A stretch of 64,000 bases of DNA from a bacterium (GTDB lineage Bacteria > Zhuqueibacterota > QNDG01 > DSAB01). Every line of letters starts with the position of its first letter. Position 1 is the first letter of the stretch. Shown piece after piece: positions 5,971 to 43,011 of this stretch. A model generated the notes under the pieces. It was given only the letters and a program-made list of their open reading frames with translations. It was not told the origin of the DNA and ran no database searches. Where the stretch lies: assembly GCA_011388275.1 (NCBI GenBank), contig DSAB01000121.1, forward strand, positions 123,579 through 187,578. The letters are read 5' to 3'. Position numbers and translations under genes: made by a program.

Positions 5971-6000
5971 ACAAGGCAGAAGTTTTTAAAGAGGTTTTTT

Positions 6001-7311: not shown

Positions 7312-7338
7312 GAACCCCGGTGAAAGTCAGGAGGGGGT

Positions 7339-8637: not shown

Positions 8638-8668
8638 CACCGGACATCAAACCGATGAGGAGCCGGTT

Positions 8669-9898: not shown

Positions 9899-9962
9899 AC
9901 TATTTTGTGTTGATATTTTCCCGCGATTCGGTTGATACAGATCAATATTATGCGACGGATAT

Positions 9963-12868: not shown

Positions 12869-12882
12869 AGCAAGGTGTTCGC

Positions 12883-18066: not shown

Positions 18067-18083
18067 AAAAGCGTGAGGCCCTT

Positions 18084-28017: not shown

Positions 28018-28064
28018 TGAATCCGTCTGTGGCACTATGAACAAAAAGGATCTCGAATCGAACC

Positions 28065-28748
28065 TTGAAACTGCTTTTGTTTGACATTGACGGCACTCTG
28101 ATGCGGACGGGCGGAGCGGGACGAATATCGATGGAGCGGGCCTTTAAAAGTGTGTATGGAGTCCGGAACGGATTCGAAGGCATTCACATGATGGGAAGGA
28201 CGGATCCGGTCATTGTTCGCGAGGCGCTGTGCAATCACGGATTGACCTGGCAGGACGACCAGGTCGAGTCATTCCGCCGGCTCTATTATGAGATTCTGAC
28301 CGAGCAGATCAAACAGCCTTTGGCCGACAAGGGATTGTGCCCGGGCATTCCTGAATTGCTTGAGGCCATTCAGGCGACCCCGGCGCTTTTTCTGGGCTTG
28401 TTGACCGGAAACTGGCGCCGGTCTGCCATGATGAAACTGGATTATTTCGGAATCCGTCCTTATTTTCCGGCTGGTGCTTTTGCCGATGATTCGGAAAAGC
28501 GGGAAGATCTGGTCGCTGTCGTTGTGGAACGCATGCTTCCCTTTACCGGAAAAATGCCCGATCCCTCGCAGGTTATTGTCATAGGCGATACGCCGATGGA
28601 CGTGGCCTGTGCGAAACCCTATGGCGCGAAAAGCGTGGCCGTGGCCACGGGTTTCCACTCACCGGAAGTGCTGAAAGCCGCCAGGCCGGATCGAATATTC
28701 AGCAATCTCGCTGACACAAAAAGAGTCCTTGCCTATTTCAAGGATTGA
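28065..28748 (+). CDS. HAD-superfamily phosphatase
   Basis: N-terminal D-I-D-G-T-L motif I and a late GDTPMD motif IV. The track reads MKLLLFDIDGTL with a TTG start, while my reading of the printed bases suggests an in-frame ATG at 28038. The start is unresolved within about 30 nt. Confidence 0.65.
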   Translation: MKLLLFDIDGTLMRTGGAGRISMERAFKSVYGVRNGFEGIHMMGRTDPVIVREALCNHGLTWQDDQVESFRRLYYEILTEQIKQPLADKGLCPGIPELLEAIQATPALFLGLLTGNWRRSAMMKLDYFGIRPYFPAGAFADDSEKREDLVAVVVERMLPFTGKMPDPSQVIVIGDTPMDVACAKPYGAKSVAVATGFHSPEVLKAARPDRIFSNLADTKRVLAYFKD

Positions 28749-28762
28749 TCTATACGCCGGAC

Positions 28763-28793
28763 TCCGGAGCCTTTTTAAATGGAAGGCTCCGGA
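28763..28793. terminator. bidirectional intrinsic-terminator-like hairpin between convergent HAD phosphatase and ferredoxin genes
   Basis: tccggagcc (28763-28771) pairs perfectly with ggctccgga (28785-28793) around a 13-nt T/A-rich loop. Located in the 83-bp gap between the two convergent stop codons. Confidence 0.4.
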
Positions 28794-28831: not shown

Positions 28832-29026
28832 TTACTCCGAAAAGTGAATCACTTCCGCCGGACACAGATCAGCGGCTTCGCGGATACATGCGTCCTGGGC
28901 GGAAAGATCGATCTCTTCAAGAACTTCCGCGGTCTCGTCACCCATTACAAACACAGCCGGGCAGGTTGAGACACAGAGTTCACACAGGGTGCATCCTTCC
29001 TCAATCCAGACTTTGTTGATGGCCAT
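28832..29026 (-). CDS. small ferredoxin (single-cluster [4Fe-4S]/[3Fe-4S] type)
   Basis: 64 aa with CTLCELCVSTCP plus a distal C...CP pair. Last gene of a minus-strand operon. Confidence 0.7.
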   Translation of the reverse strand: MAINKVWIEEGCTLCELCVSTCPAVFVMGDETAEVLEEIDLSAQDACIREAADLCPAEVIHFSE

Positions 29027-29053: not shown

Positions 29054-31387
29054 CTACGGGATTTTTTCCGCGGATTTTCGAAACAGATATTCAGAATCCA
29101 CTGCCGGTTCGTCGTTACGGTGAGCCTGCATCAGCCGTATTCGACGGGGCATGAGTTCCTTCAGATTGTCCCCGTACATCAACGGAGTTTCGCCGGCACC
29201 GGATTGCGTCATGAATGCCACGCCGGAATCGGAAAGCTCCATCAGTTCGCAGCTGTTGGCGATTTCCAGATCGATGGCATGCCGCAGTGTTTTCAGAAAG
29301 AATTTCTTTTTAGCGGATTCCAGAATGGATCCGTGTACGCAATAGATCCAGGCGGCCACATTCCTCTGAGTGATCATCCAGCAGCGCAAACCGCGAAGCC
29401 GGATCCATTGATCATAAAAAACTGAAGCCGCGTTCGGGTCGGTCGCTACGGACTGCAATGTGATGATGGCGTTCTGAAGCGGCGGCAGGACGTGTTTGTC
29501 GATTCGTTCCATGTCCCTGCCCGCTTTTTCCGGAGTGGTCAGCTGAAAAAGCACATCACGGGCCAGGTCCACGTTATTGGGATTATGGGGGGTGGTGCAC
29601 ATAAAATCTTCATAATACGCGCGCTCTTCACCGGGTATCGCCTCGATATTCGGAACCAGCGGACGGGTCCACAGGCGGTACCAGTTGAATCCCAGCGAGG
29701 CGTAAAGGGGAGTGATGACCGGGAAGGCCATGACCGTTTCTTCGGTCAGGGTCCAGGCTTCGAGAAGAACAGACTTTTTGGCTCCGGCCCATTTCCGGCC
29801 CAGGCGGTCGAGGGTTTTCTCCACGGATTCTGAGGATTGATACTGAAAGACGCGCATGACTTCGTGATTGGCATCAAAGGGAACCGCCTCGGGAGGATGG
29901 GTACCGCCTGTATGTGCCAAATGCCGGACACCATTCCGGAACAGAAGCTTAAGCCGCCGATGGGTCAGCCGGGGGTAAGGAATTCCCAGCAGAGGAAGGA
30001 ACATTCCATAGGGGCCTGCGGTAAAGTAAAAATGGGGAATGCCTCCCCGGCTTTGAATCTGTTTCATGAAAGGTTTTTCTTCGGAATCGAAACGGTTCTG
30101 ATAAACTGTTCCGGCGTTGATGGGTGAATCGGGATAGCGGGGATGCCGGTAGGGCATGTCCCATCCTTTCATGGTCAGACTCGCGGTTTCCACATCCAGC
30201 TGCCGGCCAAGGCCCTGCCGAATGACATCGTGTTCGCCGTAAAAAGATTCCATGCGGATGATGACGCGAAAATGCGGATTGATCTCCGAGGCCGCTTCAA
30301 GAAGCGTTCGAAAGAATCGAAGGGCGTTTTCGCCGGCCGCCCGTGCGATCTCCTCCTGATTTTTCCACTCTCGGATCAGATAGGCTCCTCCGTTTCGGCC
30401 TACATAGAGTGACTGTGTATGTTCGAAACCCGCACCGCTGTCATTGGTCCAGATCGTCAGGTATTCCAGATCAGGGACCTCCTGAAGGAGGTTTTGGATC
30501 ATTTCCCGGTAATGATCGAGCACCGCAGGATGGGCGGTGGTCATATTGTACCGGGGTTTGAAGCTTCGGAACGGATGATCGACCCGGGCGCCCCGCAGCA
30601 TGGGGTAACGATGGAAAAAGGATTCCGGAACGGAACGGGGTTCGAAGCAGAGCAGGCCCGGCCTGATGCCGTACCGGGCGGCCAGGCGGGCGTTGGCTTT
30701 CAGCCTTCCCAGATTTCGGGACAGATAATAGGCGGGATATACGCCGCGGTTTAGCCGGCTCGAGACGAATTGATCCAGAGCGGGGCAGTAAGTATAGAAC
30801 ATGGGATAGGCCTCACCGGGCGGGCCGGTTTCCAGGCCCATGGGGAAGTCCAGCGCATTGACTTCCACATGGGTAAAACCCATCCGGGCCAGCTTCAGAA
30901 CATAGGTTTCGGGGTCGAGATTTTTCTGTATGCGGCCCTCCTGCGTCAGGAAAAAATCATAGGCGGACCGCTGCCAGGAAAAAGCGGGTATAAATATTCG
31001 GCCTTTTTGATAGGTTGACAGGCTGTCATGCTTTCGGGTTTCCACCCAGGTGCACAGGAATCCGAACAGATATTCCGGATCGGATGCAATGAGCGATCCA
31101 TTGCCCCGGGCGTCCAGTTGGAAAAAAACCGCGGCCTTGTCCGAATCGGCGGCATTCCGAGATCCATCACGGGGCACGGATCCGATATCGATTCGGAATC
31201 CTCCTGTGGGATTCCGTTTGATCTCCTCAGTCCCGATGTGCCGATTCAGGGCGGTGCAAAGCCATTGGGCCGCGCTGCGGGTGACCGGATAATCGGGGTT
31301 ATAATGGATTGTTTGAATGCACTGCAAGGCATCGATTAGTTTCATGGGTTCTTCCTCTATCGGTCTTTTTAGAGTGTGCCGCATCAA
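29054..31387 (-). CDS. large uncharacterised cytoplasmic protein (777 aa)
   Basis: Long ORF with ordinary codon usage and no signal peptide, TM helix or Cys cluster. No family recognisable by eye; segments such as LTIWTNDSGAGFEHT hint at a TIM-barrel glycosidase-like fold. The ATGA overlap with the upstream stop supports translation. Confidence 0.5.
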   Translation of the reverse strand: MMRHTLKRPIEEEPMKLIDALQCIQTIHYNPDYPVTRSAAQWLCTALNRHIGTEEIKRNPTGGFRIDIGSVPRDGSRNAADSDKAAVFFQLDARGNGSLIASDPEYLFGFLCTWVETRKHDSLSTYQKGRIFIPAFSWQRSAYDFFLTQEGRIQKNLDPETYVLKLARMGFTHVEVNALDFPMGLETGPPGEAYPMFYTYCPALDQFVSSRLNRGVYPAYYLSRNLGRLKANARLAARYGIRPGLLCFEPRSVPESFFHRYPMLRGARVDHPFRSFKPRYNMTTAHPAVLDHYREMIQNLLQEVPDLEYLTIWTNDSGAGFEHTQSLYVGRNGGAYLIREWKNQEEIARAAGENALRFFRTLLEAASEINPHFRVIIRMESFYGEHDVIRQGLGRQLDVETASLTMKGWDMPYRHPRYPDSPINAGTVYQNRFDSEEKPFMKQIQSRGGIPHFYFTAGPYGMFLPLLGIPYPRLTHRRLKLLFRNGVRHLAHTGGTHPPEAVPFDANHEVMRVFQYQSSESVEKTLDRLGRKWAGAKKSVLLEAWTLTEETVMAFPVITPLYASLGFNWYRLWTRPLVPNIEAIPGEERAYYEDFMCTTPHNPNNVDLARDVLFQLTTPEKAGRDMERIDKHVLPPLQNAIITLQSVATDPNAASVFYDQWIRLRGLRCWMITQRNVAAWIYCVHGSILESAKKKFFLKTLRHAIDLEIANSCELMELSDSGVAFMTQSGAGETPLMYGDNLKELMPRRIRLMQAHRNDEPAVDSEYLFRKSAEKIP

Positions 31388-32646
31388 GCTCGACGTGCCA
31401 GGGTTTCAACGGCATTGAGCAATCGGGTGACATCGCCGGATCCATTGCATACATGAAAGGAGACCCGGACGGCCTCCAGACCGCCTTCAGAGACCACACG
31501 CACTCTGAACCCCATCTTCCCCAGCGCAGCTGATGCGTCCCGGTAATTCAGACGATCCATCGAGAAGGTGATCATCGATGAACGGAACTCCGGCTCTGCG
31601 GGAGAGAGAATACGGATGCCATGAATTTGTTTCAGGCCGTGATAAAACGTTTCGGACAGAACCCGGTTGTGTTCCCAAATTCGGGGTATGGAGATGGCCT
31701 GTATAAAATCCATGGCCTCTCCCAGTCCGATAAACAGAGCCTCGTTCTGAGTGGCGAATTCATAGCGGCGGGCGGTCGGATGCAGTTTCAGAGTCCGTGC
31801 CTGCAAATCATATCCGTCGTCGGAATAGGCCCCGACCGTCACGGGCCTCAGGGTATCCAGCAACGCGGGACGGACATACAGAATACCCGTGCGCCGGGGC
31901 CCTAAAAGCCATTTATGTCCGCTGACGGCGTAGAAGTCGGCGTCAATATCCTGCATGCTGACGGGCAGGGCTCCCACGGACTGCGCTCCGTCAAGGGCCA
32001 GCCAGGCGCCGTGCCGGTGAACAAGGTTCGCGATTTCACGGATCGGAAAGCACTGACCCGTGGTGCACGTGACGTGACTGATAAAAACCAGACGCGTACG
32101 ACGGCTCAGAAGCCGGCCGATGCTTTCGATCTGTTTCAGGCCTTCGTTCAGATCGGGTTCAAATGTTTGAATGACGATTCCGTCACGCTGCATTCGATTG
32201 AGCAGCGCAATATTCAGGGCGGGGTGTTCATGAGAGGATGTGATGATTTCGTCTTCCCGCTTCAGGGGCAGACCGTTGATGATGATGTTAATGCCCTCGG
32301 TGGCGGTGCCGGTCAAGGCCAGAGAATCCGCTTCACAGTCGAATATACGGGCCGCCTTTTCTTTTATTTGCAGCCAGGTGTCCATGTCATGGCCCGGTTT
32401 CGGACGTATTTCTGCCCGATCCATGGCCGTTTTCACGCATTGCCGGACCATGGCGGGAAGAGGGCCGATTCCTCCGGTATTAAGGTATGTGTAGCCTTCC
32501 GGAAAGGCGAACTGTTTTCGCACGAGGGCCCAGAACCGGGGATCGTCCTTTAAGTGATTCAGCGTTCGGGCATCGATCCGGTGATGCGGTGACAGGGCCC
32601 AGGTGCAGGCCGCTGTCAGGGCGGACAGAAAATGTCTTCGCTCCAT
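31384..32646 (-). CDS. class V aminotransferase-fold PLP-dependent enzyme with twin-arginine (Tat) signal
   Basis: MERRHFLSALTAACTWALSPHH matches the S/T-RRxFL Tat motif. SGHKWLLGP is the PLP-lysine motif of fold-type I class V enzymes (cysteine desulfurase/isopenicillin-N-epimerase-like). Start trimmed to MERRHF. Confidence 0.7.
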   Translation of the reverse strand: MERRHFLSALTAACTWALSPHHRIDARTLNHLKDDPRFWALVRKQFAFPEGYTYLNTGGIGPLPAMVRQCVKTAMDRAEIRPKPGHDMDTWLQIKEKAARIFDCEADSLALTGTATEGINIIINGLPLKREDEIITSSHEHPALNIALLNRMQRDGIVIQTFEPDLNEGLKQIESIGRLLSRRTRLVFISHVTCTTGQCFPIREIANLVHRHGAWLALDGAQSVGALPVSMQDIDADFYAVSGHKWLLGPRRTGILYVRPALLDTLRPVTVGAYSDDGYDLQARTLKLHPTARRYEFATQNEALFIGLGEAMDFIQAISIPRIWEHNRVLSETFYHGLKQIHGIRILSPAEPEFRSSMITFSMDRLNYRDASAALGKMGFRVRVVSEGGLEAVRVSFHVCNGSGDVTRLLNAVETLARRA

Positions 32647-32650
32647 GGTT

Positions 32651-34138
32651 TTATTCCTTCCTGAGTCGTATTTCAACCGTTTCTTTACCGCGATGTCCCG
32701 TCCAGTCCGCGTACAGGCTGTTTTCGATTCGGTTCTGCTGAAAGGAAATGGTTCTGCCTTCAGCCTGAATACGATCGGCCACAGTCCCCGGGGGAAGCAG
32801 TATATGGTATTCGATCTTTTTAGCCGGAGACCGGATTTCCAGTCGCATGTTCCCGCGGCATTCATAGGAATAGGAAGTTTCGGCCTGACCGGAAGGATAC
32901 CCGACCCGGACACGCGCCTGTTCCACCCCTGCGGCGCTCCATCTCGGGCAGAAACGGAGTCTGTCGAAGCAGCGGCCGCAGTCCTGAATGCCCGCCAGGC
33001 CCTCGACAAAGGCCCAGAGCATCGCGCTGCTGCCCCATCCGTCCGTGGATGTGGCTTCCGGACTGGTGCTGGTATCGGGAGTCGACGGGGTCCCGTCCGG
33101 AAAGTACCAGAGAAAGCTTTTTCCGGTTGATTCGATCATTCGTGCATAACGGTTCAGAATATCCACTCCATATATTTCCATTCCGTGTTCCAGGGCGGCC
33201 CTGGCCATCTCACCCCCCACCAGCGGCATGATGCCGCCGTTGACATACGCTCCGGGCGTAAGCTTGTCATCTCCGAAAAATGCGGGCGGAAAGGGCGGGT
33301 CTATGGAAAACCATTCGGCGAAAAGGTTTTCGCGTCTTCGGGAGCGGTATTCATTCAGTATGGAAACCGCCATTCGATGGTCCGCCGCTCCGCGGTTGAC
33401 GGCCATCGGATTGCTGAGACTGAGCTGACGGGCGGTCTCAACCTCTGGGACATCAACGGGGATCAGCGGTACGAAATGGGTGTAGAAACGCCCGTTCCAG
33501 CAGAGCCGGTTCATGCGGTCTTTGATGTCCATAGCCCTGGACAGCCAATACCGGGACTCTTTGGTCCTGTGGAAACGGCTCAGTACTCCGGCCAGAAGGA
33601 CCATGGCTTCATAGAGGCCGCTGTTGTCTCCATGCATGATACCCCAGACCGTATGCTTATCGATCTGAAATTGCAGCCAGTCATGACGCCTTCCTGTATA
33701 GGCGAAATCCCAGGTGTCGATGGTGTAGGGACGTTTTAAAAGTCCTTCGGAAGGATCCCAGCGCCATGGATGGGTGAGGCTGTATTCAAGGGCGGCTTTC
33801 AGCGAAGGAATCAACGACTGAATCCATGAATCATCACCGCAGGCCTGCCAGGCCAAAAAGGCGGCTTTGACGAACCGGTATTCCACGTCGGCTTCCACCG
33901 GAACGCGGACGTATTTGGTCCAGTTTTCCTTTTCGCAGGGAGGCTTCTCCGGAAACGTCGTGAAATAATCGAAAATACGGCCGTTTCGTGCCTGCGTCTC
34001 CGCGAAATGGGTCACCGTACTGGTGAGATCCTTTTCAAAATAACGGACGCCCCTCAGCATGTCGCTGTAATCCCGAATCCATACAGAACGGGCATCGGGC
34101 GACCGGTATCCGCGTATGAGTGCGCCGTCGATGTTCAT
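32651..34138 (-). CDS. hypothetical protein, possibly six-hairpin glycosidase-like
   Basis: 495 aa, no signal peptide, aromatic-rich segments (TIDTWDFAYTGRRHDW, YVNGGIMPLVGGEMA) reminiscent of (alpha/alpha)6 glycosidases. Assignment is weak. Confidence 0.4.
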   Translation of the reverse strand: MNIDGALIRGYRSPDARSVWIRDYSDMLRGVRYFEKDLTSTVTHFAETQARNGRIFDYFTTFPEKPPCEKENWTKYVRVPVEADVEYRFVKAAFLAWQACGDDSWIQSLIPSLKAALEYSLTHPWRWDPSEGLLKRPYTIDTWDFAYTGRRHDWLQFQIDKHTVWGIMHGDNSGLYEAMVLLAGVLSRFHRTKESRYWLSRAMDIKDRMNRLCWNGRFYTHFVPLIPVDVPEVETARQLSLSNPMAVNRGAADHRMAVSILNEYRSRRRENLFAEWFSIDPPFPPAFFGDDKLTPGAYVNGGIMPLVGGEMARAALEHGMEIYGVDILNRYARMIESTGKSFLWYFPDGTPSTPDTSTSPEATSTDGWGSSAMLWAFVEGLAGIQDCGRCFDRLRFCPRWSAAGVEQARVRVGYPSGQAETSYSYECRGNMRLEIRSPAKKIEYHILLPPGTVADRIQAEGRTISFQQNRIENSLYADWTGHRGKETVEIRLRKE

Positions 34139-34267
34139 ATCCAGCGTGTCCTGCGTGAGAAAGGATTTGATACGCGGATACAGTTCGTCCCAGCGCTTGT
34201 GACCGGTCCGAATTTCTATTTCGGTTTGAATGGCTGTCCTCCGTTGCTGTCGGTAACGCGCGGACTG

Positions 34268-34957
34268 CTATCTCGATGATCCCACGGTCAGAACACAGGA
34301 TTTCAGAATATGCCGGGCACTGGTAATCCCCGAGAGATCGGGAATCGGCCGGGAGACAGGGTCCAGCTGGTCTGATCGTCCTGTCAGAACGGGTTCGGCC
34401 CTGAAGTCCGGTACGACCCGAAACGGTACGGCATAGATCAGCGAGGGCTGGCCGTTTCCATCCGGGTCCGGCAGGCCGCCCTCGAGTCTCGGCGGAAATG
34501 AGGCGTTGTAATCGCCGGATATATTCAATTCCAGAAAAAGGGTCCATGACGAGCCGCGAGGAAGGCGGGTTCGGATTGTCAGGTTTCGGACAGGAGTGGC
34601 GCCGGTCAGGGCGTCGGGAAGCGGATTCAGCACGCCCGGCGCCGGATTTCCGGTGCGCCGCACATACCGGCTGACCCAGATGGGAAGGGATGTGGGACAT
34701 TCGACCTTTCCTTCCCAATATCCGGTTGCGGTACGGCGGCTGACCCATACGGTTCGCATCGCATCTTCTTTTTCCACCCACACGGCGATTTGCGGAGGTT
34801 CCCCGAAATTGCTCTCCTGATACACATTGCGGTTCAGCCGTACGGTAAGGGTGACCGGGAGTTCATCGGGTCCGGCCGAATCCGAAGCGGGCTCTTCGTT
34901 CATACCGAAAACCGGGATCAACAAAGAGATCCATAAAGCGAGATGAAGAGAAACCAA
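34268..34957 (-). CDS. secreted DUF2271-like protein
   Basis: Signal peptide MVSLHLALWISLLIPVFG. IAVWVEKEDAMRTVWVS and DALTGATP resemble the conserved DUF2271 blocks (AVWIED..., D-x-x-SGAT). Confidence 0.5.
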   Translation of the reverse strand: MVSLHLALWISLLIPVFGMNEEPASDSAGPDELPVTLTVRLNRNVYQESNFGEPPQIAVWVEKEDAMRTVWVSRRTATGYWEGKVECPTSLPIWVSRYVRRTGNPAPGVLNPLPDALTGATPVRNLTIRTRLPRGSSWTLFLELNISGDYNASFPPRLEGGLPDPDGNGQPSLIYAVPFRVVPDFRAEPVLTGRSDQLDPVSRPIPDLSGITSARHILKSCVLTVGSSR

Positions 34958-36313
34958 CTATTCGACTCCTTCGAATTGCAAAGGTTTTCGCTCTTTCCAC
35001 CGGCCCCGAGTAAAGTCCGGAAAGTTCACCGGACGTGATCGTCTGGCCACGGAGATCTCCGTCAGCTCCGAAATCACGCTCCAGTCGACCGCGTCATAGA
35101 CGTCCATGTCCACAGGCCGGCCGTGACGGAGGGCCTCAATAAGACGCCAGTCTTCGATGAAGTCGGCGCCGCCGTGACCGGCTCCGCGTGCCGCGTCTTC
35201 AGCCATACGAATGAGAGGATGTTCGAATTCCTCTCTGTAATTTTCAAGGGGCTCCCAGCGGTGCCGGGGGCTGCGTCCTTCAATATGAATACGGTCCGGC
35301 CAGCCCTGAGTGATACCCCGGGTTCCCTGAATGAGATTGATGCGGCTGTACGGTCTGGGCAGGTTGGTATCATGGACCAGGGTGATGGTACGGCCTTTGA
35401 CGGTTTTGATCAGACAGGTGTTCACATCGCCGCAGGCATAGTCGGCCTTTGCGAAGGGATGATCGGCTCCCAGTTTTTCGGCGGCATACAGTTTAAGACC
35501 CCTTGCCGGAGAACTCATAGACACCAGATAGTCGAAACGGTCGCCACGGTTGATGTTCATGCATTGGGCGATGGGGCCCAGGCCGTGTGTGGGATACAGA
35601 TTGCCGTTGCGCTTCATGGAATGATAAATCCGCCATTGTTTTTCATAGGCGCTTCCGGTTTTCATATTCCGCAGATCATGATTATAGGCCCCTTCGCCGT
35701 GAAGCAGCTCGCCGAAAAGCCCGTGCCTGACCATGTTGAGTATCATCATCTCCGGACCCATATAGCAGACATTTTCCAGCATTACGCAATGCTTGTTGGT
35801 TTTTTCCGCGGTTTCGACCAGTTCCCAGCATTCGTCGATAGTGAGGGCGGCCGGCACCTCCGTGGCTGTGTGGCTGCCGGTCTTCATGGCTTCCACGCAG
35901 ATCGGGACATGCCATTTCCATGGCGTGGCGGTCATGACCAGATCCAGATCTTCTTCGGCGCACATGCGCCTGAAATCCGTTTCACTCCGGGAATAGCCGC
36001 GGGGCTCCGGCTTGCCCGCGGCCCGGGCCCAGCTCTGCATGCGAGCCACTTTTTCTTCCACGATATCGCAGACCGCGATCAATTCCGCCCCTTCGATGCG
36101 GAGAAGATTGCGAACATGTCCGGAACCCTGATTTCCCACCCCGACAAACGCGACTCGTACGGGGTCGATGGGACCCGAAGAGGCGGGATTGTACTCGATT
36201 GCGGACTGTTTTGCGCATCGGGGTGCGGTCACGGTCAGGGCCGTTCCCACGCCGGCGGCGGCCAGACCGATGAAGTCACGTCTGGATACAGGTTGCGAAA
36301 AATTGTTTTTCAT
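34958..36313 (-). CDS. Gfo/Idh/MocA-family NAD(P)-dependent oxidoreductase with Tat signal (GFOR/GH109-like)
   Basis: VSRRDFIGLAAAGVGTA Tat signal and a VAFVGVGNQGSGHV Rossmann motif, 451 aa. Both periplasmic glucose-fructose oxidoreductase and GH109 alpha-N-acetylgalactosaminidases share this Tat + tightly-bound-NAD architecture. Confidence 0.75.
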   Translation of the reverse strand: MKNNFSQPVSRRDFIGLAAAGVGTALTVTAPRCAKQSAIEYNPASSGPIDPVRVAFVGVGNQGSGHVRNLLRIEGAELIAVCDIVEEKVARMQSWARAAGKPEPRGYSRSETDFRRMCAEEDLDLVMTATPWKWHVPICVEAMKTGSHTATEVPAALTIDECWELVETAEKTNKHCVMLENVCYMGPEMMILNMVRHGLFGELLHGEGAYNHDLRNMKTGSAYEKQWRIYHSMKRNGNLYPTHGLGPIAQCMNINRGDRFDYLVSMSSPARGLKLYAAEKLGADHPFAKADYACGDVNTCLIKTVKGRTITLVHDTNLPRPYSRINLIQGTRGITQGWPDRIHIEGRSPRHRWEPLENYREEFEHPLIRMAEDAARGAGHGGADFIEDWRLIEALRHGRPVDMDVYDAVDWSVISELTEISVARRSRPVNFPDFTRGRWKERKPLQFEGVE

Positions 36314-36335
36314 GGGAGAACCTCCATGATTAAAA

Positions 36336-36506
36336 TCAATGCCCGTTGTCTGGGTTTTTCAGGATCGAGTCCGGAGTGGCTGTCGAAAGATCCCTGAACA
36401 GGTCCCGGATATTGAATATCCCTCCGATCAGCACAACCGTGACCATGAGGCTGTAGCCGATCAGGGTGAAAATCAGAACAATTTGCCACAGAATCGTCCA
36501 GTTCAT
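36336..36506 (-). CDS. small single-TM membrane protein translationally coupled to the SSS transporter
   Basis: 56 aa: MNWTILWQIVLIFTLIGYSLMVTVVLIGGIFNIRDLFRDLSTATPDSILKNPDNGH. Its ATG overlaps the SSS stop (ATGA) and it ends 22 nt before the next gene. Not in the track as a separate entry; it lies inside a longer alternative-start ORF. Confidence 0.35.
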   Translation of the reverse strand: MNWTILWQIVLIFTLIGYSLMVTVVLIGGIFNIRDLFRDLSTATPDSILKNPDNGH

Positions 36507-38017
36507 GATGCGTTCTCCCTGTTTGCATCGGGAAAGCACAGAGAACCGATGATCATCCCTGCAGCGGCCATGACAAAGGTCATGGCACCGATGAATTTGT
36601 CCGATGCATACCAGGGGGGATCTCCCTGAGTCCACGGACCGATTCCCAGAACAGCCAGAAGACCCGCGGCCAGTGCCAGAACCGCGCCAGTGGAACTGGC
36701 CCGTTTCCAGTAGAGTCCGCCGAGCACCACGGCGAAGGCCCCCGAGAGATAGATCGTTCCGGTTACGGCCATATAATTCCACAGGGAAACAGGTGCTTCA
36801 AACCACAACCCCCAGAGAAGCAGAAACACGCCGATTCCGAGAATCGCCATTCGGGTGATCAGCAGTCTCTTTTTATCTGTCAGTGTCCGGCGATGCAGCG
36901 GGGCGACAATGTCCTGGGTGATCACCGAACTCCAGCTCAGCAGGTAGCTGTCATGCGTTGACATGAAGGCCGCGAACATGCCGGCTGCCAGAATCCCCAG
37001 AAAACCCGAAGGAATGATTTTGGCGATGAAAACGGGCATGCCGAACTGGCTGTTGAGGGGGTCGGGGCCGGTGAAGGCGTCAAGCAGAAACGGAGTCTGA
37101 GAAACAAACACAAAGGCTCCGATGCCCCACAGCATGGGAATGATTCGGCGTGCGAGAAAGGAGAGGGAACCCACGGCGTAGAGGTGTTTGGCCGTACGGG
37201 GCGATTTCACGGAAAGGGCGCGCAGGGTGGATGACTGCCAGAGGGTTCCGGTGGAAAGGCTCAGCAGAACCATGAAAAACACATAAAGAGAGCCGAACCC
37301 GGATCCTTCGGCGAGAGGATTCAGCCAGGCGTCCGCGTTTTGGGTTTCGGGAATGCTGAACAGGGCATTCCAGCCCAGATGATGGATGATGAATATGGAT
37401 CCGATAACCATGCCCCCGGACAAGACGACAAACTGGATAAAATCATTGAGAACCACGGACACCATCCCGCCCAATGTGGTATAGATCAAAACCATGATCA
37501 GCATGGATGACATGAAGATCTTCAATCCGGCAGCGTGCTGATATCCGGTCACTCCGATCATGAAACGGGCGCCGGCCTGAAGAAACAGCCCCATGTTGAG
37601 TATGCCTCCCAGGGCCAGGATGGTGCCTCCCAGTATTCGGACTTTTTTTCCGAAACGCCGTTCATAGAATTCGGGTATGGTGAGGATCTCCATGGACCGC
37701 AGCTTGTAAACAATGAGTCCGGTCAGGCCGATCACCAGTACGCATACCGATTCGATGAGGGCGATGTGAAACGCGGAGAATCCATATTTAAACCCCAGTT
37801 CCGCGTTGTACATCACCGTAACCAGGCCGAGTTCGGTCCCTGTCAGGGTGGCGACGGCCAGAAAGAGGCGAAGGTTGCGGCCTGCCACAATGAAATCGCT
37901 CATTCCGTGAATATACTTGCGAACCAGGACTCCGATGACAACGGGAATGCAGATATACACCAGCAGAATAATCCAGTCGATGCGCTGAAAATTGGTCGCG
38001 AAGATGTCCATATCCAT
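36503..38017 (-). CDS. sodium:solute symporter (SSS family)
   Basis: 504 aa, about 13 TM helices; DFIVAGRNLRLFLAVATLTGTELG is an SSS family signature region. Confidence 0.85.
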   Translation of the reverse strand: MDMDIFATNFQRIDWIILLVYICIPVVIGVLVRKYIHGMSDFIVAGRNLRLFLAVATLTGTELGLVTVMYNAELGFKYGFSAFHIALIESVCVLVIGLTGLIVYKLRSMEILTIPEFYERRFGKKVRILGGTILALGGILNMGLFLQAGARFMIGVTGYQHAAGLKIFMSSMLIMVLIYTTLGGMVSVVLNDFIQFVVLSGGMVIGSIFIIHHLGWNALFSIPETQNADAWLNPLAEGSGFGSLYVFFMVLLSLSTGTLWQSSTLRALSVKSPRTAKHLYAVGSLSFLARRIIPMLWGIGAFVFVSQTPFLLDAFTGPDPLNSQFGMPVFIAKIIPSGFLGILAAGMFAAFMSTHDSYLLSWSSVITQDIVAPLHRRTLTDKKRLLITRMAILGIGVFLLLWGLWFEAPVSLWNYMAVTGTIYLSGAFAVVLGGLYWKRASSTGAVLALAAGLLAVLGIGPWTQGDPPWYASDKFIGAMTFVMAAAGMIIGSLCFPDANRENAS

Positions 38018-38024
38018 GGATCCC

Positions 38025-39149
38025 CTATCCCATTTCGGTTGAGTCGGGAGTCCGTTTCTCTGAAAAAACCCGAATCCCCGGGCCGATGTGAATGATCATG
38101 GGCTTTCCGCCGGCCTGAGCAATGGCTTCAGCCGCGGCTTCGGCGTTTACAGGCGCGTACACGAACATGCAGCCTCCTCCTCCTGATCCGTTGATCTTTC
38201 CGCCCAGGGCGCCTGCCTTGAGGGCGGCCTGGAGCATGGCGTCGATTTTTGGAGTGGATATTTTCAGCCGGTCGCGCAGTATTTCGTGATGACGGTTGAG
38301 CAGATCTCCAAAGGTTCGACCGTCCATTTTCCGCGCAAGCATTATTTTTCTGGCGGTTTCGGTCAGATTTCTGTTTTGGATCTGTCCTTCCAGCAGGGCG
38401 GCCTGGCTTTCGTTCAGGCAGCTTTTCAATGATTCAAATCGTTCCTGCGTCAGATTTCCAAGTGTCGAAGCCGGATCTTCTTTTTTAATACAGCCGAAGG
38501 CTTCAAGCGTTCCCTTCTTGACGCGGCTCAGGATGGAAAAGGTGTCTTTGGGCTCCATCGAGTCTCCGAGCACGAAAGAACCCAAATCACCCGGCAGGGC
38601 TTCGGGAGCTCCCGGAGAGGAAAAATCGATATAGAGCAGGGAGCCCAGGCTCGAGACCATGTGATCCATCATGCCCCCCGGTTCGCCGAATTCCCTGACC
38701 TCCGCCTCATGAGCGATTCGGGCCACGGTCAAGGGGTCCAGCGCCCGCTTATCCCCGCCGGCTTTCAACAGGAAACACACCCAGGCCACCATCAGGGCCG
38801 AGGAACTGGACGTTCCGGAGTTGATGGGAATGTTTCCGCGCACCGTACACCGATAACCGGTTTTCCACGTGACTCCGTGCCTTTGAACAACCCGGATTCC
38901 GCTGCGAAAGTAATCGCGTTCTTTCCGGTATCGTACTGGCGATTCAAGAGAGACGATCTCCATGTGATGAATGTCGGGGCAGTGGACGACGAATTCCGGA
39001 CGAGGGTGAGGACGTCCGATGATTTCAATCCGCAGATCAATGGCCGCGGTGATCACCGAAAGACCCAGATAGTCCTGATGTTCCCCGAACAGGCAGATCC
39101 GTCCCGGAGCGGAGGCCCGGATCGCCTGTGCGCTGTTCGATGAATTCAT
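38025..39149 (-). CDS. GHMP kinase, galactokinase family (sugar 1-kinase)
   Basis: APGRICLFGEHQDY matches the galactokinase signature GR-x-N-L-I-GEH-x-DY. PINSGTSSSSAL is GHMP motif II and GSGGGGC is motif III. 374 aa. Confidence 0.8.
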   Translation of the reverse strand: MNSSNSAQAIRASAPGRICLFGEHQDYLGLSVITAAIDLRIEIIGRPHPRPEFVVHCPDIHHMEIVSLESPVRYRKERDYFRSGIRVVQRHGVTWKTGYRCTVRGNIPINSGTSSSSALMVAWVCFLLKAGGDKRALDPLTVARIAHEAEVREFGEPGGMMDHMVSSLGSLLYIDFSSPGAPEALPGDLGSFVLGDSMEPKDTFSILSRVKKGTLEAFGCIKKEDPASTLGNLTQERFESLKSCLNESQAALLEGQIQNRNLTETARKIMLARKMDGRTFGDLLNRHHEILRDRLKISTPKIDAMLQAALKAGALGGKINGSGGGGCMFVYAPVNAEAAAEAIAQAGGKPMIIHIGPGIRVFSEKRTPDSTEMG

Positions 39150-42028
39150 TCGCTGTGTGTCCGGTTTTTTGTTTCCGGTACCGCGTCCTCTTTGGTTTCG
39201 GTCTGTTCTGCTTTATGTGAGCTGTCTTTCGGCGCCTCCTGTGTCCAGAGCTTGATGCGCTCTTTCAGATGCTCTTCCATCTTCAGATGGGGTATTCCTT
39301 CCGTCATCCATACGGGAGCCTCGCCGCCCCTGAGATGATGATCGAAGAATTCCTTCATGCGAAGCGTATAATCTTTGCGGTTGGCCGGCTTCCGGACGCC
39401 GTGATTTTCCCCTTTATACTGAAGCATAATAACGGATTTTCCCAGCCGCCTGAGCGCGTTGTAGTATTCGATTCCCTGGTTCCAGTCAACAGCCCCATCC
39501 TTGTCGTTGTGCAGCAGAAGCAGAGGCGTCTCAACGTCCCGGGCGAAATAGACAGGCGAATTGCGCCTGTAAGCGTCATTCAATTCCCAATACCCGCCTG
39601 TGAAGCGGCCCTGCTGGCTTTCGAAAATAGGCTGATTGGCCGATCCGGTATTCCAGTAGATGGAACTGTACATGCTGATCAGGTTGGTTAAAGGAGCGCC
39701 GGCCGCGGCCGCCTTGAAACGGCCGGTTTGTGTGATGAGAAACGCCGTTTGATACCCGCCCCATGAATGGCCGTGCAGGCCGATCCGCTCGGGATCGATC
39801 ACGCCGGTCTCGATGGCCGCGTCGAGTGCCGGAAGAACGCACCACACGGCCGACATGCCGGGATCGTTGACCTTGTATTTGATGTCCGGCATCAGCACCG
39901 CGTATCCCCAGTGATTGAACAGAGAACGGCTGAATCCGCCGGTACGGGGCGGGTTGTACGTGTTCAATGTCTGGGAAAGCGTCTCGTAGATATACACAAT
40001 AGCTGGATAGGTTTTTCCTTCTTCATATTCCGCTGGCAGAAAAAGGGCTCCCTGCATTCGCTGATTGCCGGTCCCCCGGTATTCGATCAGCCGGGCTTCG
40101 GCCGTCCATGCATACTCATCCTGCCGGGGATTGGCTTCGGTCAGCCGGCGAAAACCGGACCATTCGCCGTCTGCAGTATAATAATCCGGAAACTCGCTGA
40201 AAGTTTCCCGGGTATACAGATACCGTTCCGCTTCTTCGGCTTTCATGAGGGAGCCGTACCGGGCATCGTCCCAAAAGATCATACGGGAATCTTTACCGTG
40301 TATTTGAGTAATACCCGACTTTTTATTCCATTCCCCGTAGGCGAAAAAGTAAAGCGGCAAGGAAAGATCGATGCCTTTTTCATCGGGATCCAGCTGAACC
40401 CGGCGGGCGTACCGCTTTCCCTGTGTGCGTCCATCTTTGGTCAGGTTCTTCCACTTTCTGCCCTGGATGTCCACTTGCCAGACATCCCAGTTGTCGTAGA
40501 GAAGCACATGCCGGCCGGTTTTGTCCCATCCCACCGGCCGGATCGGCGGATCGATGACGTTGTGATCGTCTTCGGTGTCGATAAAGGAAACCGGCATATC
40601 ACGGGTGATGTTCACGGGTTTTCCGCCGGCCAGTTCCACCGTGTAGTAGTGGCCGTTTTCATAATACAGAAAATGCGTGCCGGTCGGAGAGACGGTAAAA
40701 GGCCACCGGCATTTGGAAATCAGCAGATGGCGCTGCCCGTTCTTCATGTTTACGGCATAGATGTCGCGGTACCGGCGGCCGTCCAGGTTGGCCATCCAGA
40801 GATAGGGGGATTCGTCATAGCCCAGAGCCCATAGATCCTTCGGTGCGGGATAAACCAGGCGCAAACTGTCATCGGCCAGGCGATAAAAGGTGTTTTCCCG
40901 AATCCGGTAAAGAGCCGTATAGCTGAATGTTTTATCCCGTCCCGCCTGAACCTGCTGCATGGACTGCAGGCGGTCGTCGCCGTGATGCCAGATTACCAGG
41001 GCCGGTATTTCCTCGTCGTTGGAACCTGAGGATTTGTTTTCATCTTTTTCCGTATCCGCCATTTCATGAATGCCGAAGATCAGGGCGTCCAGGTTGTCGC
41101 TCCATCGGGGCCGCTGATGCGGGCTGATGGACATATGAGAAGGAAAAGCGTCATCGAGTGCCGGATCGTAAAGAGCGCGGGTCACCTCGGGCCGGTCCAG
41201 ATCCTTGAATCCCAGAATCGAGTGGTGAGACGGGCCCCCTTTCTTTTTTGCCGGTTTTACATGTTCCTTCAAAACCGTGAAGCCTTCTCCTTCTTCGGTC
41301 CAGTTCAGATTTGAGTACCGGGCCGAATCCTGCTCGAGCACCGTGACTTCACCGGATGAGAGGCGGCGCAGCTGAATGCCGTTGCCTCTCTGTTCATGGG
41401 CGTCCACCAGCCAGACCAGAAAGCGGCCGTGTTTGTCGAAGGCGAATTCCGATACATTGCCGATGTTGATCTGCTGCATGGTGTTGAGATCAACAAGAAG
41501 CAGATCCGTGCCCTGATAGCCCGAATCGTCTTTTTTCCGGGAGGCCGGGGCGTAACCGTGCAGTGCCAGCCAGCGGGACCCATGGCACAGAGCAAAATTT
41601 TGAATGCCCTTGTATTCGGTCATTCCGCCGTTTTCGAGCCTGACCAGGGCGACACTGTTTTCCGGTTGTGCTGTTCCCTTCCGGTTCTTTTTCGATTCCA
41701 TGGACGGATACACGGTAAAGGCAAGCCATCGGCCGTTGTCCGTGAACGTCAGATCGCCACGGGATGATTCTCCCGCAGGGAACCGGTAGCATTTATCCCC
41801 TTCGGTTTCCCGGATCAGAACTTTGCTGTCGCCTTCCTGAGGCACGAGGCGGCAGGCAAACCAGCTGCCGTCGCGTGAGAGGGCTGCGGATCGAATGGTT
41901 TTCCATTCCAGGATATCGGGAATGGTCAATTCCCTGGCTGAGACAGAAAAAACGGATGAAAAAGCGATGAAAACAAGGATAAAGATTCCTTGTATACGGC
42001 TGGCTGGGCGCATGGTTTTTCCTTTCAT
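39146..42028 (-). CDS. secreted S9-family serine peptidase (beta-propeller + prolyl-oligopeptidase-type alpha/beta hydrolase)
   Basis: Signal peptide MKGKTMRPASRIQGIFILVFIAFSSVFSVSA, a long propeller-like N-terminal region, and a C-terminal GHSWGGYQT (GxSxGG nucleophile elbow) with downstream Asp/His blocks (LLLHNDKDGAVD...GENHGV). Confidence 0.75.
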   Translation of the reverse strand: MKGKTMRPASRIQGIFILVFIAFSSVFSVSARELTIPDILEWKTIRSAALSRDGSWFACRLVPQEGDSKVLIRETEGDKCYRFPAGESSRGDLTFTDNGRWLAFTVYPSMESKKNRKGTAQPENSVALVRLENGGMTEYKGIQNFALCHGSRWLALHGYAPASRKKDDSGYQGTDLLLVDLNTMQQINIGNVSEFAFDKHGRFLVWLVDAHEQRGNGIQLRRLSSGEVTVLEQDSARYSNLNWTEEGEGFTVLKEHVKPAKKKGGPSHHSILGFKDLDRPEVTRALYDPALDDAFPSHMSISPHQRPRWSDNLDALIFGIHEMADTEKDENKSSGSNDEEIPALVIWHHGDDRLQSMQQVQAGRDKTFSYTALYRIRENTFYRLADDSLRLVYPAPKDLWALGYDESPYLWMANLDGRRYRDIYAVNMKNGQRHLLISKCRWPFTVSPTGTHFLYYENGHYYTVELAGGKPVNITRDMPVSFIDTEDDHNVIDPPIRPVGWDKTGRHVLLYDNWDVWQVDIQGRKWKNLTKDGRTQGKRYARRVQLDPDEKGIDLSLPLYFFAYGEWNKKSGITQIHGKDSRMIFWDDARYGSLMKAEEAERYLYTRETFSEFPDYYTADGEWSGFRRLTEANPRQDEYAWTAEARLIEYRGTGNQRMQGALFLPAEYEEGKTYPAIVYIYETLSQTLNTYNPPRTGGFSRSLFNHWGYAVLMPDIKYKVNDPGMSAVWCVLPALDAAIETGVIDPERIGLHGHSWGGYQTAFLITQTGRFKAAAAGAPLTNLISMYSSIYWNTGSANQPIFESQQGRFTGGYWELNDAYRRNSPVYFARDVETPLLLLHNDKDGAVDWNQGIEYYNALRRLGKSVIMLQYKGENHGVRKPANRKDYTLRMKEFFDHHLRGGEAPVWMTEGIPHLKMEEHLKERIKLWTQEAPKDSSHKAEQTETKEDAVPETKNRTHSE

Positions 42029-42029
42029 G

Positions 42030-42782
42030 TCAGGTTGATTTGAGGGATTTGACCATCGATGAGACGGCTTCGCCGAGCAGCATGGCGTCAATGCCGCAGG
42101 CGATGAGCGTATACCCTTCGGCGATTCGTGAACGAACGGCGTCGGCATTCACTCCGAATATGCCGACCGGCAGGCCTGCATCCGCCGCCGATTGACGAAC
42201 GGTTTCGACTGCGGTTTCAACTTCGGCGTCCCTGACCTGTCCCGGCTTGTTCATGCTTCCCGACAGGTCATAGGGACCGATAAACACGGCATCCACTCCT
42301 GGAATCCGGACGATCTCGTCGATATTCCGGACACCGTCGATATGCTCGATTTGAATAATGACCGCCATCTGATCGTTCGCGTTCTCTATGTAATTCTGAA
42401 AAGTCGCTCCATATCCCTGCGCCCGGGCAATACCCACGTCGCGCTGACCCAGGGGCGGGTATTTGCAGCAGCGAATGATACGGCGTGTCTGTTCGGGGGT
42501 GTTCACGTGGGGTATCAAAACTCCATCAGGACCCGTGTCCATGACCTTTTTAATCCAGACTTCGTCGTGGGAAGGGACGCGGACCACGGCCGGACAGTTT
42601 CCCGCGGCTTGAAGCAGCCTTTGAACTTCAAGTATGCCGAAGGCTCCGTGCTCCATGTCCATGAAGATCCAGTCCACACCTGAGAGGGCGATTATCTCGG
42701 CGGCTTCCGGAGAAGCCAGGGAAAGAAATGTGCCGATAAGCGGTTTTTGCGCGCGGAGCAGCTGACGAAAAGAACGGTTCAT
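42030..42782 (-). CDS. HpcH/HpaI-family 2-keto-3-deoxy-acid aldolase
   Basis: 250 aa TIM barrel with ...IFMDMEHGAFG, VVRVP and IQIEHIDGVRNIDEI blocks typical of GarL/RhmA/HpaI class II pyruvate aldolases. Confidence 0.8.
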   Translation of the reverse strand: MNRSFRQLLRAQKPLIGTFLSLASPEAAEIIALSGVDWIFMDMEHGAFGILEVQRLLQAAGNCPAVVRVPSHDEVWIKKVMDTGPDGVLIPHVNTPEQTRRIIRCCKYPPLGQRDVGIARAQGYGATFQNYIENANDQMAVIIQIEHIDGVRNIDEIVRIPGVDAVFIGPYDLSGSMNKPGQVRDAEVETAVETVRQSAADAGLPVGIFGVNADAVRSRIAEGYTLIACGIDAMLLGEAVSSMVKSLKST

Positions 42783-42943
42783 GGACTCCTCCTGAAAGAA
42801 ATGTGTGCTTCAGTTGGCGAGAGGCCGTGATTGATACAAACAGCATGGCTGTAAAATAATGAATTCCCCCCTGGATGTCAACGGATTCGTGAAAGAACCG
42901 GGAATGAACCGGCCTTATTTTGAACCGGCAAGGTAAATGCCGG

Positions 42944-42972
42944 TTGACTTTCAGGCTGTAAATAATTACTAT
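42944..42972 (+). promoter_or_regulatory. sigma70-like promoter candidate for the SSS transporter gene (TTGACT-N17-TACTAT)
   Basis: cggTTGACTttcaggctgtaaataatTACTATaaaac about 40 nt upstream of the ATG at 43012. Preceded by an aaccggc/gccggtt hairpin. Confidence 0.3.
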
Positions 42973-43011
42973 AAAACGGTCAGAATGAAAACAGATTCCG
43001 GAGAAAAACGG

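Follow-up and report, generated by a model that had tools for sequence, protein, structure and literature searches.

In Bacteroides thetaiotaomicron, the release, uptake and phosphorylation of N-acetylgalactosamine (GalNAc) are carried out by the operon BT4240-43, which is part of the polysaccharide utilization locus (PUL) BT4240-50 (PMC11992087). A second known type of sugar salvage combines a sugar-1-kinase of the GHMP family with a pyrophosphorylase, as in the Bacteroides L-fucokinase/GDP-fucose pyrophosphorylase Fkp and in the case of glucuronokinase (PMC11982464, PMC3938481). Here we analyse a stretch of 64,000 nucleotides (the window; positions 123,579 to 187,578 of contig DSAB01000121.1, assembly GCA_011388275.1) from an uncultured environmental bacterium of the Zhuqueibacterota, and within it a locus of 12 consecutive genes on the minus strand that runs from 42782 to 28832 (~14 kb) and faces a divergent gene for a sodium:solute symporter (SSS). 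The locus is a variation on the known type of sugar-scavenging operon, for which BT4240-43/44 is the nearest described system, joined to an uncharacterised, widespread glycosidase-like module. We favour, with moderate confidence, the view that it forms one catabolic operon, a mosaic of two independently recurring modules with lineage-specific additions. Module A comprises a glycosidase of glycoside hydrolase (GH) family 109, a 504-residue symporter (SSS504) with a membrane mini-protein, and a GHMP-family sugar kinase. Module B comprises a long symporter (SSS725), two glycosidase-like proteins (u495 and u763) and a class-V pyridoxal phosphate (PLP) enzyme (AT5). The additions are an HpcH/HpaI-family aldolase (HpcH), a secreted hydrolase of family S9, a small protein (u211) and a ferredoxin.

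The two modules were delimited by comparing loci from other organisms. One genome per GTDB species was scanned for u763, yielding 80 loci (L002-L081), and a metagenome scan anchored on the kinase yielded another 80 (L082-L161), giving 160 comparison loci in all. The window proteins were mapped onto the u763 loci by tblastn, and presence was counted only where the flanking sequence suffices (n=54; n=45 for SSS725, where 8 kb or more of upstream DNA was required). Of the 54 loci, 47 contain u495 (~58% identity) and 31 contain AT5 (~50%), while SSS725 lies next to u495 in 22 of 45 (60-70% identity), usually on the same strand and in six loci divergently (L045, L069, L070, L074 and L076 among them). 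The order SSS725 > u495 > AT5 > u763 is constant across at least five phyla. About 33 of the 80 loci belong to Bacteroidota, 15 to Gemmatimonadota and 13 to Acidobacteriota, with single loci in Aminicenantes, KSB1, Phycisphaerales and others. HpcH, S9, the kinase, SSS504, u211, the ferredoxin and full-length GH109 were found in none of the 80. The genes for the glycosidase-like protein, the PLP enzyme and the 777-residue protein are thus no accessories of a GalNAc pathway; they form an independent cross-phylum module that does without GH109 or kinase. A literature search found no paper describing this gene combination.

Genes recurring in the vicinity of u763 encode a xylose-isomerase-like TIM barrel (35 loci), Gfo/Idh/MocA proteins (31), GH38 enzymes (27), short-chain dehydrogenases/reductases (SDR; 25), an old-yellow-enzyme (OYE)-like flavoenzyme (24), uroporphyrinogen decarboxylase (URO-D)/MtaA-like proteins (24 and 16), FAD_binding_2 proteins (22) and GH15-like proteins (18). 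In seven loci u763 is accompanied by a fusion of 2-keto-3-deoxy-6-phosphogluconate (KDPG) aldolase with a PfkB-type kinase. A fuller version of module B is seen in a Rikenellaceae metagenome-assembled genome (MAG; locus L010, 1721-20851), where 12 co-directional genes encode, in order, an N-acylglucosamine 2-epimerase (AGE), SSS725, a DUF5060 protein, u495, AT5, u763 and xylose-isomerase-like, OYE-like, SDR, GH38, Gfo/Idh/MocA and URO-D-like proteins. The window itself carries, ~26 kb from module B, the gene, truncated at the window edge, for a GH38 alpha-mannosidase-like protein (2-796, minus strand; 55% identity to a GH38 neighbour of u763) and a gene for a GH15-like protein of 671 amino acids (823-2838, minus strand; 46% identity to a u763-neighbour gene). 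All 80 u763 loci stem from MAGs or single-amplified genomes and none from a cultured isolate. Identity of u763 remains at 50-61% across very different phyla, an evenness that points to strong constraint or lateral transfer.

Module A recurs in the kinase-anchored set. The kinase gene is directly followed by a gene for a nucleotidyltransferase (NTP_transferase) in 40 of the 80 loci, has an SSS gene upstream in 29 and is accompanied by a ROK regulator in 13. A slot for a glycosidase is filled by a GH109 with a twin-arginine translocation (Tat) signal in eight loci, where it adjoins the kinase, and by a Melibiase-like protein of 887 residues in about nine. The recurrent operon can be written glycosidase-SSS-GHMP kinase-NTP_transferase(-ROK-epimerase). 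Tat-GH109, SSS and GHMP kinase occur together in five metagenomic loci other than ours. Among the loci with the closest kinase homologs, L086 (58% identity) also holds the closest GH109 (62%), in an amino-sugar setting where an SGSH-like sulfatase is encoded together with an AGE epimerase and an N-acetyltransferase; in L084 the kinase stands alone. Of the gene neighbourhood looked for in other organisms, GH109, symporter and kinase are found together again, but not S9 and HpcH, which occur in none of the 160 loci.

How the modules are joined in the window is informative. SSS725 and u495 are adjacent elsewhere, and here HpcH, S9, the kinase, SSS504, the mini-protein and GH109, together with u211, lie between them, so that the two modules have a single divergent promoter region in common. 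This arrangement argues for a functional link between the modules, without proving it. In functional terms the divergent SSS725 gene (42937-45114, plus strand) is part of the unit. An independent gene call by JGI on the 313-kb metagenome contig from which the window stems recovered all 12 minus-strand genes; together with Pfam and NCBIfam it also bears out the gene order and nearly all family labels that had been proposed. Each of the 11 junctions is either an overlap or a gap of at most ~38 nt. ATGA couplings had been announced for several of them, and two are indeed of this kind (S9/kinase and SSS504/mini-protein); the HpcH/S9 junction reads TGAcATG, that between GH109 and u211 is a TAG followed without spacer by TTG, and the others are gaps of 4 to ~38 nt. 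Sequences resembling ribosome-binding sites (RBS) precede those start codons that were inspected. A promoter-like site, TTGACA-17-TATTTT (42853-42881, minus strand; 10 of 12 consensus matches), lies upstream of HpcH within the 154-bp intergenic region that separates it from SSS725; a look for an operator in this region yielded only short imperfect repeats, nothing convincing. No Rfam element is present along the locus. At the other end a stem-loop of 10-11 base pairs (28764-28792, minus strand) is located between the convergent genes for the ferredoxin and a haloacid dehalogenase (HAD)-type phosphatase, with a minimum free energy of -32.2 kcal/mol for an 83-nt region (z = -3.2). It is likely to be the transcription terminator, a role that we only infer because the stem is not followed by a T-run.

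Judged from the sequence, the 12 genes look like one transcription unit and would be transcribed together. The packing, the single promoter-like site and the hairpin at the end are in line with a single unit, rather than separate transcription units, but the unit does not stop at 31384 as had been proposed: it reaches the ferredoxin gene at 28832 and the hairpin behind it, and in functional terms SSS725. It is unlikely, in our estimation, that the genes are functionally unrelated neighbours, that is, two or three cassettes and a stray S9, HpcH and ferredoxin packed together by rearrangement and, whether co-transcribed or not, sharing no common substrate. Such an origin would agree with the occurrence of each module alone elsewhere, with the lack of conserved partners for S9, HpcH, u211 and ferredoxin, and with the finding that the combination is reproduced in none of the 160 loci. 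However, it would leave unexplained why the six extra genes sit exactly between SSS725 and u495, hence behind the divergent promoter region of the module, why the junctions overlap or are very short, and why the operon shows no conspicuous internal hairpin of terminator type followed by a T-run.

The proteins of module A can be assigned with some precision. The predicted Tat-exported, NAD-dependent glycosidase (34958-36313, minus strand; 451 amino acids) combines a Tat signal recognised by TIGR01409 (19.5 bits, cut-off 16.7), an N-terminal GFO_IDH_MocA Rossmann domain for NAD binding (PF01408, 53 bits, cut-off 24) with the GxGxxG motif GVGNQG at residue 58, and a C-terminal Glyco_hydro_109_C domain (PF21252, 220.7 bits, cut-off 27). 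It aligns over its full length with the Akkermansia GH109 structure 6t2b (E = 4.8e-108) and with NagA, 2ixa (E = 7.9e-94), and is thus not a generic dehydrogenase unrelated to GH109. Its GAGHGG loop aligns with the GGHGG and GAGHGG loops of these two proteins; a role of the GGHGG-type loop in acid/base catalysis is indicated by the title of Teze et al. 2020, as cited in PMC12269599. The protein, first described as GH109-like, is a genuine GH109 by sequence, for which GalNAc-ase activity is predicted.

SSS504 (36503-38017, minus strand; PF00474, 127 bits) has homologs of 37-42% identity near the kinase in loci L090, L115 and L126. Its stop codon overlaps the gene for a 56-residue membrane protein with a single helix and no Pfam match (36336-36506, minus strand), and behind all three of the SSS504 homologs examined we found a similar open reading frame (ORF) of ~50 residues, again with a single helix and with a conserved xDLKE/DMF tail. 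The mini-protein is probably an unannotated small subunit of this transporter subfamily. The kinase (38025-39149, minus strand; 374 amino acids) shows the domains GHMP_N (PF00288, 46.7 bits) and GHMP_C (PF08544, 53.2 bits), the galactose-binding signature GalKase_gal_bdg (PF10509, 41.1 bits, cut-off 23.1) and a GEHQDY motif, and its closest match in the PDB is human GalNAc kinase, 2a2c. With scores short of the cut-offs for bacterial GalK and for mevalonate kinase, it belongs to a distinct GHMP subfamily. It probably phosphorylates its sugar at the anomeric carbon, C1.

In module B, u763 is the most conspicuous protein. The ORF of 777 codons that had been noted does exist, with its start most likely at ATG 31345, preceded by the RBS GAGGAA, rather than at an overlapping TTG, which leaves 763 amino acids (29054-31345, minus strand) and no signal peptide. 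More than 2000 homologs have 52-61% identity; among the 120 best listed, no source gives names or domains. The more than 2000 known sequences are spread over Bacteroidota, Gemmatimonadota, Acidobacteriota, Aminicenantes, KSB1 and Planctomycetota; each genome copy found belongs to an uncultured organism. When 1.84 billion representatives were searched exhaustively with a profile, only 595 relatives were retrieved. Comparison with Pfam, NCBIfam and the PDB by phmmer and profile gave no usable family link, and 10 divergent relatives (620-770 amino acids) likewise had no meaningful Pfam match. An alignment of 52 sequences contains ~150 invariant columns. The AlphaFold2 model (pLDDT 81.6, pTM 0.88) begins with an alpha/beta domain, continues with a TIM-like barrel and ends in a bundle of helices; its nearest folds have the GH138/GH20/GH67 architecture, and GH84, GH89 and GH115 are also among them, at 9-12% identity. 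No match to GH138, GH20 or GH67 by sequence or profile was detected for u763, nor were catalytic residues identified. The conserved loops 172-185, 252-267, 303-327 and 583-599 have pLDDT values below 50; in terms of the model, this suggests an active site or an interface that requires a ligand, a cofactor or a partner.

The second glycosidase-like protein, u495, has a longer reading frame than first proposed. Its gene (32651-34231, minus strand) seems to start at ATT 34231, because homologs share 31 conserved residues ahead of the first ATG, and this conserved N-terminus precedes any ATG, GTG or TTG. The ATT codon (34229-34231) follows a GGAGGA Shine-Dalgarno sequence by six nucleotides, the NCBI copy begins at the same site, and the protein thus comprises ~526 residues without signal peptide. 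Its AlphaFold2 model (pLDDT 84.5) is an (alpha/alpha)6 barrel, the six-hairpin type, with a C-terminal beta-sandwich, for which Foldseek finds GH78 rhamnosidases (E = 6.5e-16, TMq 0.66, 12-15% identity) and next GH94 and GH63. No sequence match was obtained in Pfam (E ≤ 10), NCBIfam or the PDB; a profile search of the PDB gave only marginal matches to GH94 and ExoMA2, and a few homologs carry weak precomputed matches to PF22422 or PF17389. An assignment to GH78 was accordingly not made, the likeness being one of fold and not of sequence. Both u763 and u495 can be called glycosidase-like on the strength of their modelled folds. It is possible, and we propose this tentatively, that they are founding members of two glycosidase (or phosphorylase) families in a widespread glycoconjugate pathway together with AT5 and SSS725.

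AT5 (31384-32646, minus strand; 420 amino acids; Aminotran_5, PF00266, 201 bits) is a class-V PLP enzyme with predicted Tat export. Its N-terminus contains RRHFL, and Tat-like N-termini are present in most AT5 homologs of the u763 loci. PDB matches are to SufS, C-DES and PvdN, and the PLP lysine is situated in SGHKW. A cysteine desulfurase of the SufS type was considered and rejected: manual inspection of the SufS loop (VRVVSEGG) reveals no cysteine, and the score with TIGR01979 is 184.6 against 475.1. AT5 aligns with PvdN over the full length and has the Tat-like N-terminus, but it scores 117.5 bits with the PvdN model (cut-off 650). SSS725, with 725 amino acids (PF00474), is unusually long for a sodium:solute symporter.

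Four proteins have a more local character. HpcH, the product of the first gene of the operon (42030-42782, minus strand; 250 amino acids), is a class II pyruvate aldolase of the HpcH/HpaI family (PF03328, 143.4 bits) that among PDB entries is most similar to HpaI (E = 1.4e-44) and YfaU (E = 1e-43). It remains below all NCBIfam equivalog cut-offs, with 193.9 against 368.8 for HpaI, 180.7 against 406.75 for GarL and 160.6 against 441 for KDR aldolase. The S9-family serine hydrolase (39146-42028, minus strand; 960 amino acids) has a signal-peptide-like N-terminus, ~700 N-terminal residues without Pfam match and a C-terminal catalytic domain (PF00326, 101.8 bits), to which its PDB matches are restricted; the nucleophile motif GHSWGG, of the GxSxGG type, is at residue 753. 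A weak match to the model of the esterase BD-FAE (19.7 bits) is under the cut-off. Four homologs of 50-55% identity are found in unrelated neighbourhoods, mostly beside genes for an extracytoplasmic function (ECF) sigma factor and TonB_C. No homolog of S9 or HpcH is present in the 80 kinase loci or in the 80 u763 loci, and both are local additions, not conserved partners. For S9 as a partner of GH109 and kinase the idea was discarded on these grounds, its absence from kinase loci and the unrelated contexts of its homologs. The gene for u211 (34268-34957, minus strand) encodes 229 residues if read from a TTG, in which case the N-terminus resembles a signal peptide, and 211 if translation begins at ATG 34903. 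It had been labelled a secreted DUF2271 protein, a label we drop since no Pfam or NCBIfam family matches even at E ≤ 10; its one homolog lies near the kinase gene in locus L104. The last gene (28832-29026, minus strand; 64 amino acids) specifies a ferredoxin with a single 4Fe-4S cluster (Fer4_13, PF13370), which is not part of the conserved module B, tblastn having found no match in the 80 u763 loci.

The pathway that we infer from this gene content would begin in the periplasm, where the Tat-exported GH109 could cut a terminal GalNAc- or galactose (Gal)-type sugar off a glycoconjugate. SSS504 would take up the freed sugar and the kinase with its GalK signature would add phosphate at C1. In most relatives a nucleotidyltransferase would then form the nucleoside diphosphate (NDP)-sugar; the gene is missing here. 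The sugar of module A is probably of the GalNAc or Gal type. This is plausible because the glycosidase slot is occupied now by GH109, now by enzymes of Melibiase type (clan GH-D), and also because the closest solved kinase is human GalNAc kinase and the neighbours in L086 are amino-sugar enzymes. In module B, SSS725 would import a small oligosaccharide or glycoconjugate, which the six-hairpin barrel u495 and the TIM barrel u763 might dismantle in the cytoplasm. AT5 would act earlier and outside the cytoplasm, with either the substrate or some amino or thio-amino moiety as its target. For HpcH the probable reaction is cleavage of an end product of the 2-keto-3-deoxy acid type, by which it would stand in for the fusion of 2-keto-3-deoxygluconate (KDG) kinase and KDPG aldolase of some module-B loci. 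S9, to judge by the position of its gene alone, is probably an extracellular enzyme that trims the peptide (or ester) portion of the substrate, and a part for the ferredoxin would be similarly conjectural. That module B is wired here to a GalNAc unit, a peptidase and an aldolase hints at a substrate with an amino sugar and an amino-acid part.

A number of points weigh against the view of one dedicated catabolic operon. The kinase scores 108 bits with the GalK equivalog TIGR00131 (cut-off 226.65) and about equally well, with 121 bits, against the mevalonate kinase model PRK03926 (cut-off 403). The operon holds neither a nucleotidyltransferase nor an enzyme that converts GalNAc-1-phosphate. S9-family members may be esterases instead of peptidases. 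In u763 the best-conserved loops are those modelled least confidently, and neither u763 nor u495 has a demonstrated set of catalytic residues. The logic of a periplasmic PLP enzyme next to cytoplasmic glycosidases has not been worked out. Promoter and terminator matches in the region are no more numerous than expected by chance or in shuffles, and the promoter site is a consensus match only. The operon may also be mere packing of unrelated catabolic genes.

It had originally been speculated that the locus serves the use of a glycopeptide or an O-glycan-type substrate. In the strict form of this idea, the whole operon would be dedicated to O-glycopeptides of the alpha-GalNAc-Ser/Thr, mucin type: S9 would cut the peptide, GH109 would free GalNAc for the kinase to trap, the PLP enzyme would handle the amino acid and the other glycosidase-like proteins would remove further sugars. 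The single apparent transcription unit and the genuine GH109 fit this proposal, as do two analogues in Bacteroides, the B. thetaiotaomicron PUL BT4240-50 with GH109, transporter, GalNAc-1-kinase and O-glycopeptidase (PMC11992087) and PUL25 of B. caccae with peptidases and GH109 (PMC12269599). We nevertheless consider it improbable. The absence of S9 from the 80 loci with kinase or GH109 and the unrelated contexts of its homologs speak against a conserved link to the peptidase, and S9 is not an O-glycopeptidase family. Moreover, u495, AT5 and u763 occur in at least 50 loci without GH109, kinase or peptidase, and the GH38, Gfo/Idh/MocA, xylose-isomerase-like, OYE-like and URO-D-like genes of these loci are unlike mucin-type metabolism. 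What stands of the earlier idea is the part played by GH109, transporter and kinase, with its Bacteroides analogues, while the substrate is still a matter of speculation.

Very unlikely, in our view, is a substrate in the form of a glycoconjugate, proteoglycan-like or acidic and of bacterial or algal origin, with GalNAc and uronic acid, on which GH109 would act as alpha/beta-GalNAc-ase, u763 as uronidase, HpcH on a uronate-derived 2-keto-3-deoxy acid and S9 on the core peptide: the folds nearest to u763 do include alpha-galacturonidase GH138 and the alpha-glucuronidases GH67 and GH115, relatives of HpcH include 2-dehydro-3-deoxy-glucarate/galactarate aldolases, SDR and KDG-kinase/KDPG-aldolase genes occur in module-B loci and a sulfatase in L086, the GalNAc kinase of B. 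thetaiotaomicron is required for glycosaminoglycan use (PMC11992087) and a B. caccae GH109 lies in a chondroitin locus (PMC12269599), but the fold likeness of u763 is distant (9-12% identity) and extends just as well to the HexNAc-ases GH20, GH84 and GH89, the operon contains no lyase, unsaturated-uronyl hydrolase, sulfatase or uronate isomerase/dehydrogenase, and module-B loci hold GH38 mannosidase-like genes instead.

Some neighbouring genes should be mentioned here. Genes for a class II aldolase of the fructose-bisphosphate (FBP)/tagatose-bisphosphate type and the HAD phosphatase (26854-28748, plus strand) converge on the ferredoxin end of the operon, and a gene of the histone-deacetylase (HDAC) family, acetyl-amidohydrolase-like (45261-46112, minus strand), converges on SSS725. 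These three neighbours might be linked to amino-sugar metabolism. Further away, at 4966-20607 on the plus strand, the window contains a polysaccharide biosynthesis cluster of the exopolysaccharide or O-antigen type, with NDP-sugar dehydratase/epimerase, UDP-glucose dehydrogenase, Wza/Wzz-like export proteins, flippase, Wzy-like polymerase, several glycosyltransferases, a priming transferase and a DegT aminotransferase.

Seen as a mosaic of two modules, the locus is of interest in several respects. Module A represents a non-orthologous version of the Bacteroides GalNAc route, with a GHMP instead of an APH kinase and an SSS transporter with a mini-subunit, a version widely found in environmental metagenomes. 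With its help a large kinase family can be annotated whose members now carry the names galactokinase or mevalonate kinase at random. Module B draws attention to two large families with glycosidase folds, conserved at 52-64% identity across phyla, unnamed in any domain library and accompanied by a PLP enzyme with predicted export. The present locus is the only place seen where module B is physically joined to enzymes for GalNAc, peptide and 2-keto-3-deoxy acid, and is therefore a useful clue to its substrate. Should that substrate be found, new CAZy families and a new route of carbon cycling would follow for soils, sediments and hot springs dominated by uncultured phyla. The locus would gain in importance should u763 and u495 turn out to represent new families of glycosidases.

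Comparison with known systems brings out what is shared and what is particular to this locus. AT5 resembles PvdN and C-DES in its full-length alignment and in lacking the SufS cysteine, and PvdN also in its predicted Tat export, but it scores far below the family cut-offs and its genomic setting is that of carbohydrate catabolism and not of siderophore maturation or the cleavage of cystine. u763 differs from GH138, GH20C, GH84, GH67, GH115 and GH89 not only in its low identity and the absence of any sequence or profile match but also in being cytoplasmic, while u495 shares barrel and beta-sandwich with the GH78 alpha-L-rhamnosidases and is separated from them by its 12-15% identity and lack of a Pfam match. 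GH109 corresponds to NagA of Elizabethkingia (2ixa) and AmGH109 (6t2b) in full length, Rossmann fold, C-terminal domain, GGHGG-type loop and export signal; here it stems from an uncultured environmental bacterium and not from a gut or clinical isolate. As in Fkp-type salvage, the family of the window kinase pairs a kinase with a following nucleotidyltransferase. In contrast to Fkp, the genes are separate rather than fused and the family is often preceded by an SSS transporter and an exported exo-glycosidase, and in the window the nucleotidyltransferase is absent. The closest parallel is BT4240-43: there, as here, one operon encodes a GH109 along with a sugar transporter of the inner membrane and a sugar-1-kinase, and the locus also includes a peptidase. 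However, the kinase is of the GHMP/GalK type here and of the APH/NahK type there, the transporter is an SSS protein with a mini-subunit, and between 28.8 and 45.1 kb an S9 hydrolase takes the place of the GH2, SusC/D and M60-like O-glycopeptidase genes of BT4240-50. Finally, half of the present operon consists of a conserved module that is unrelated to the B. thetaiotaomicron system.

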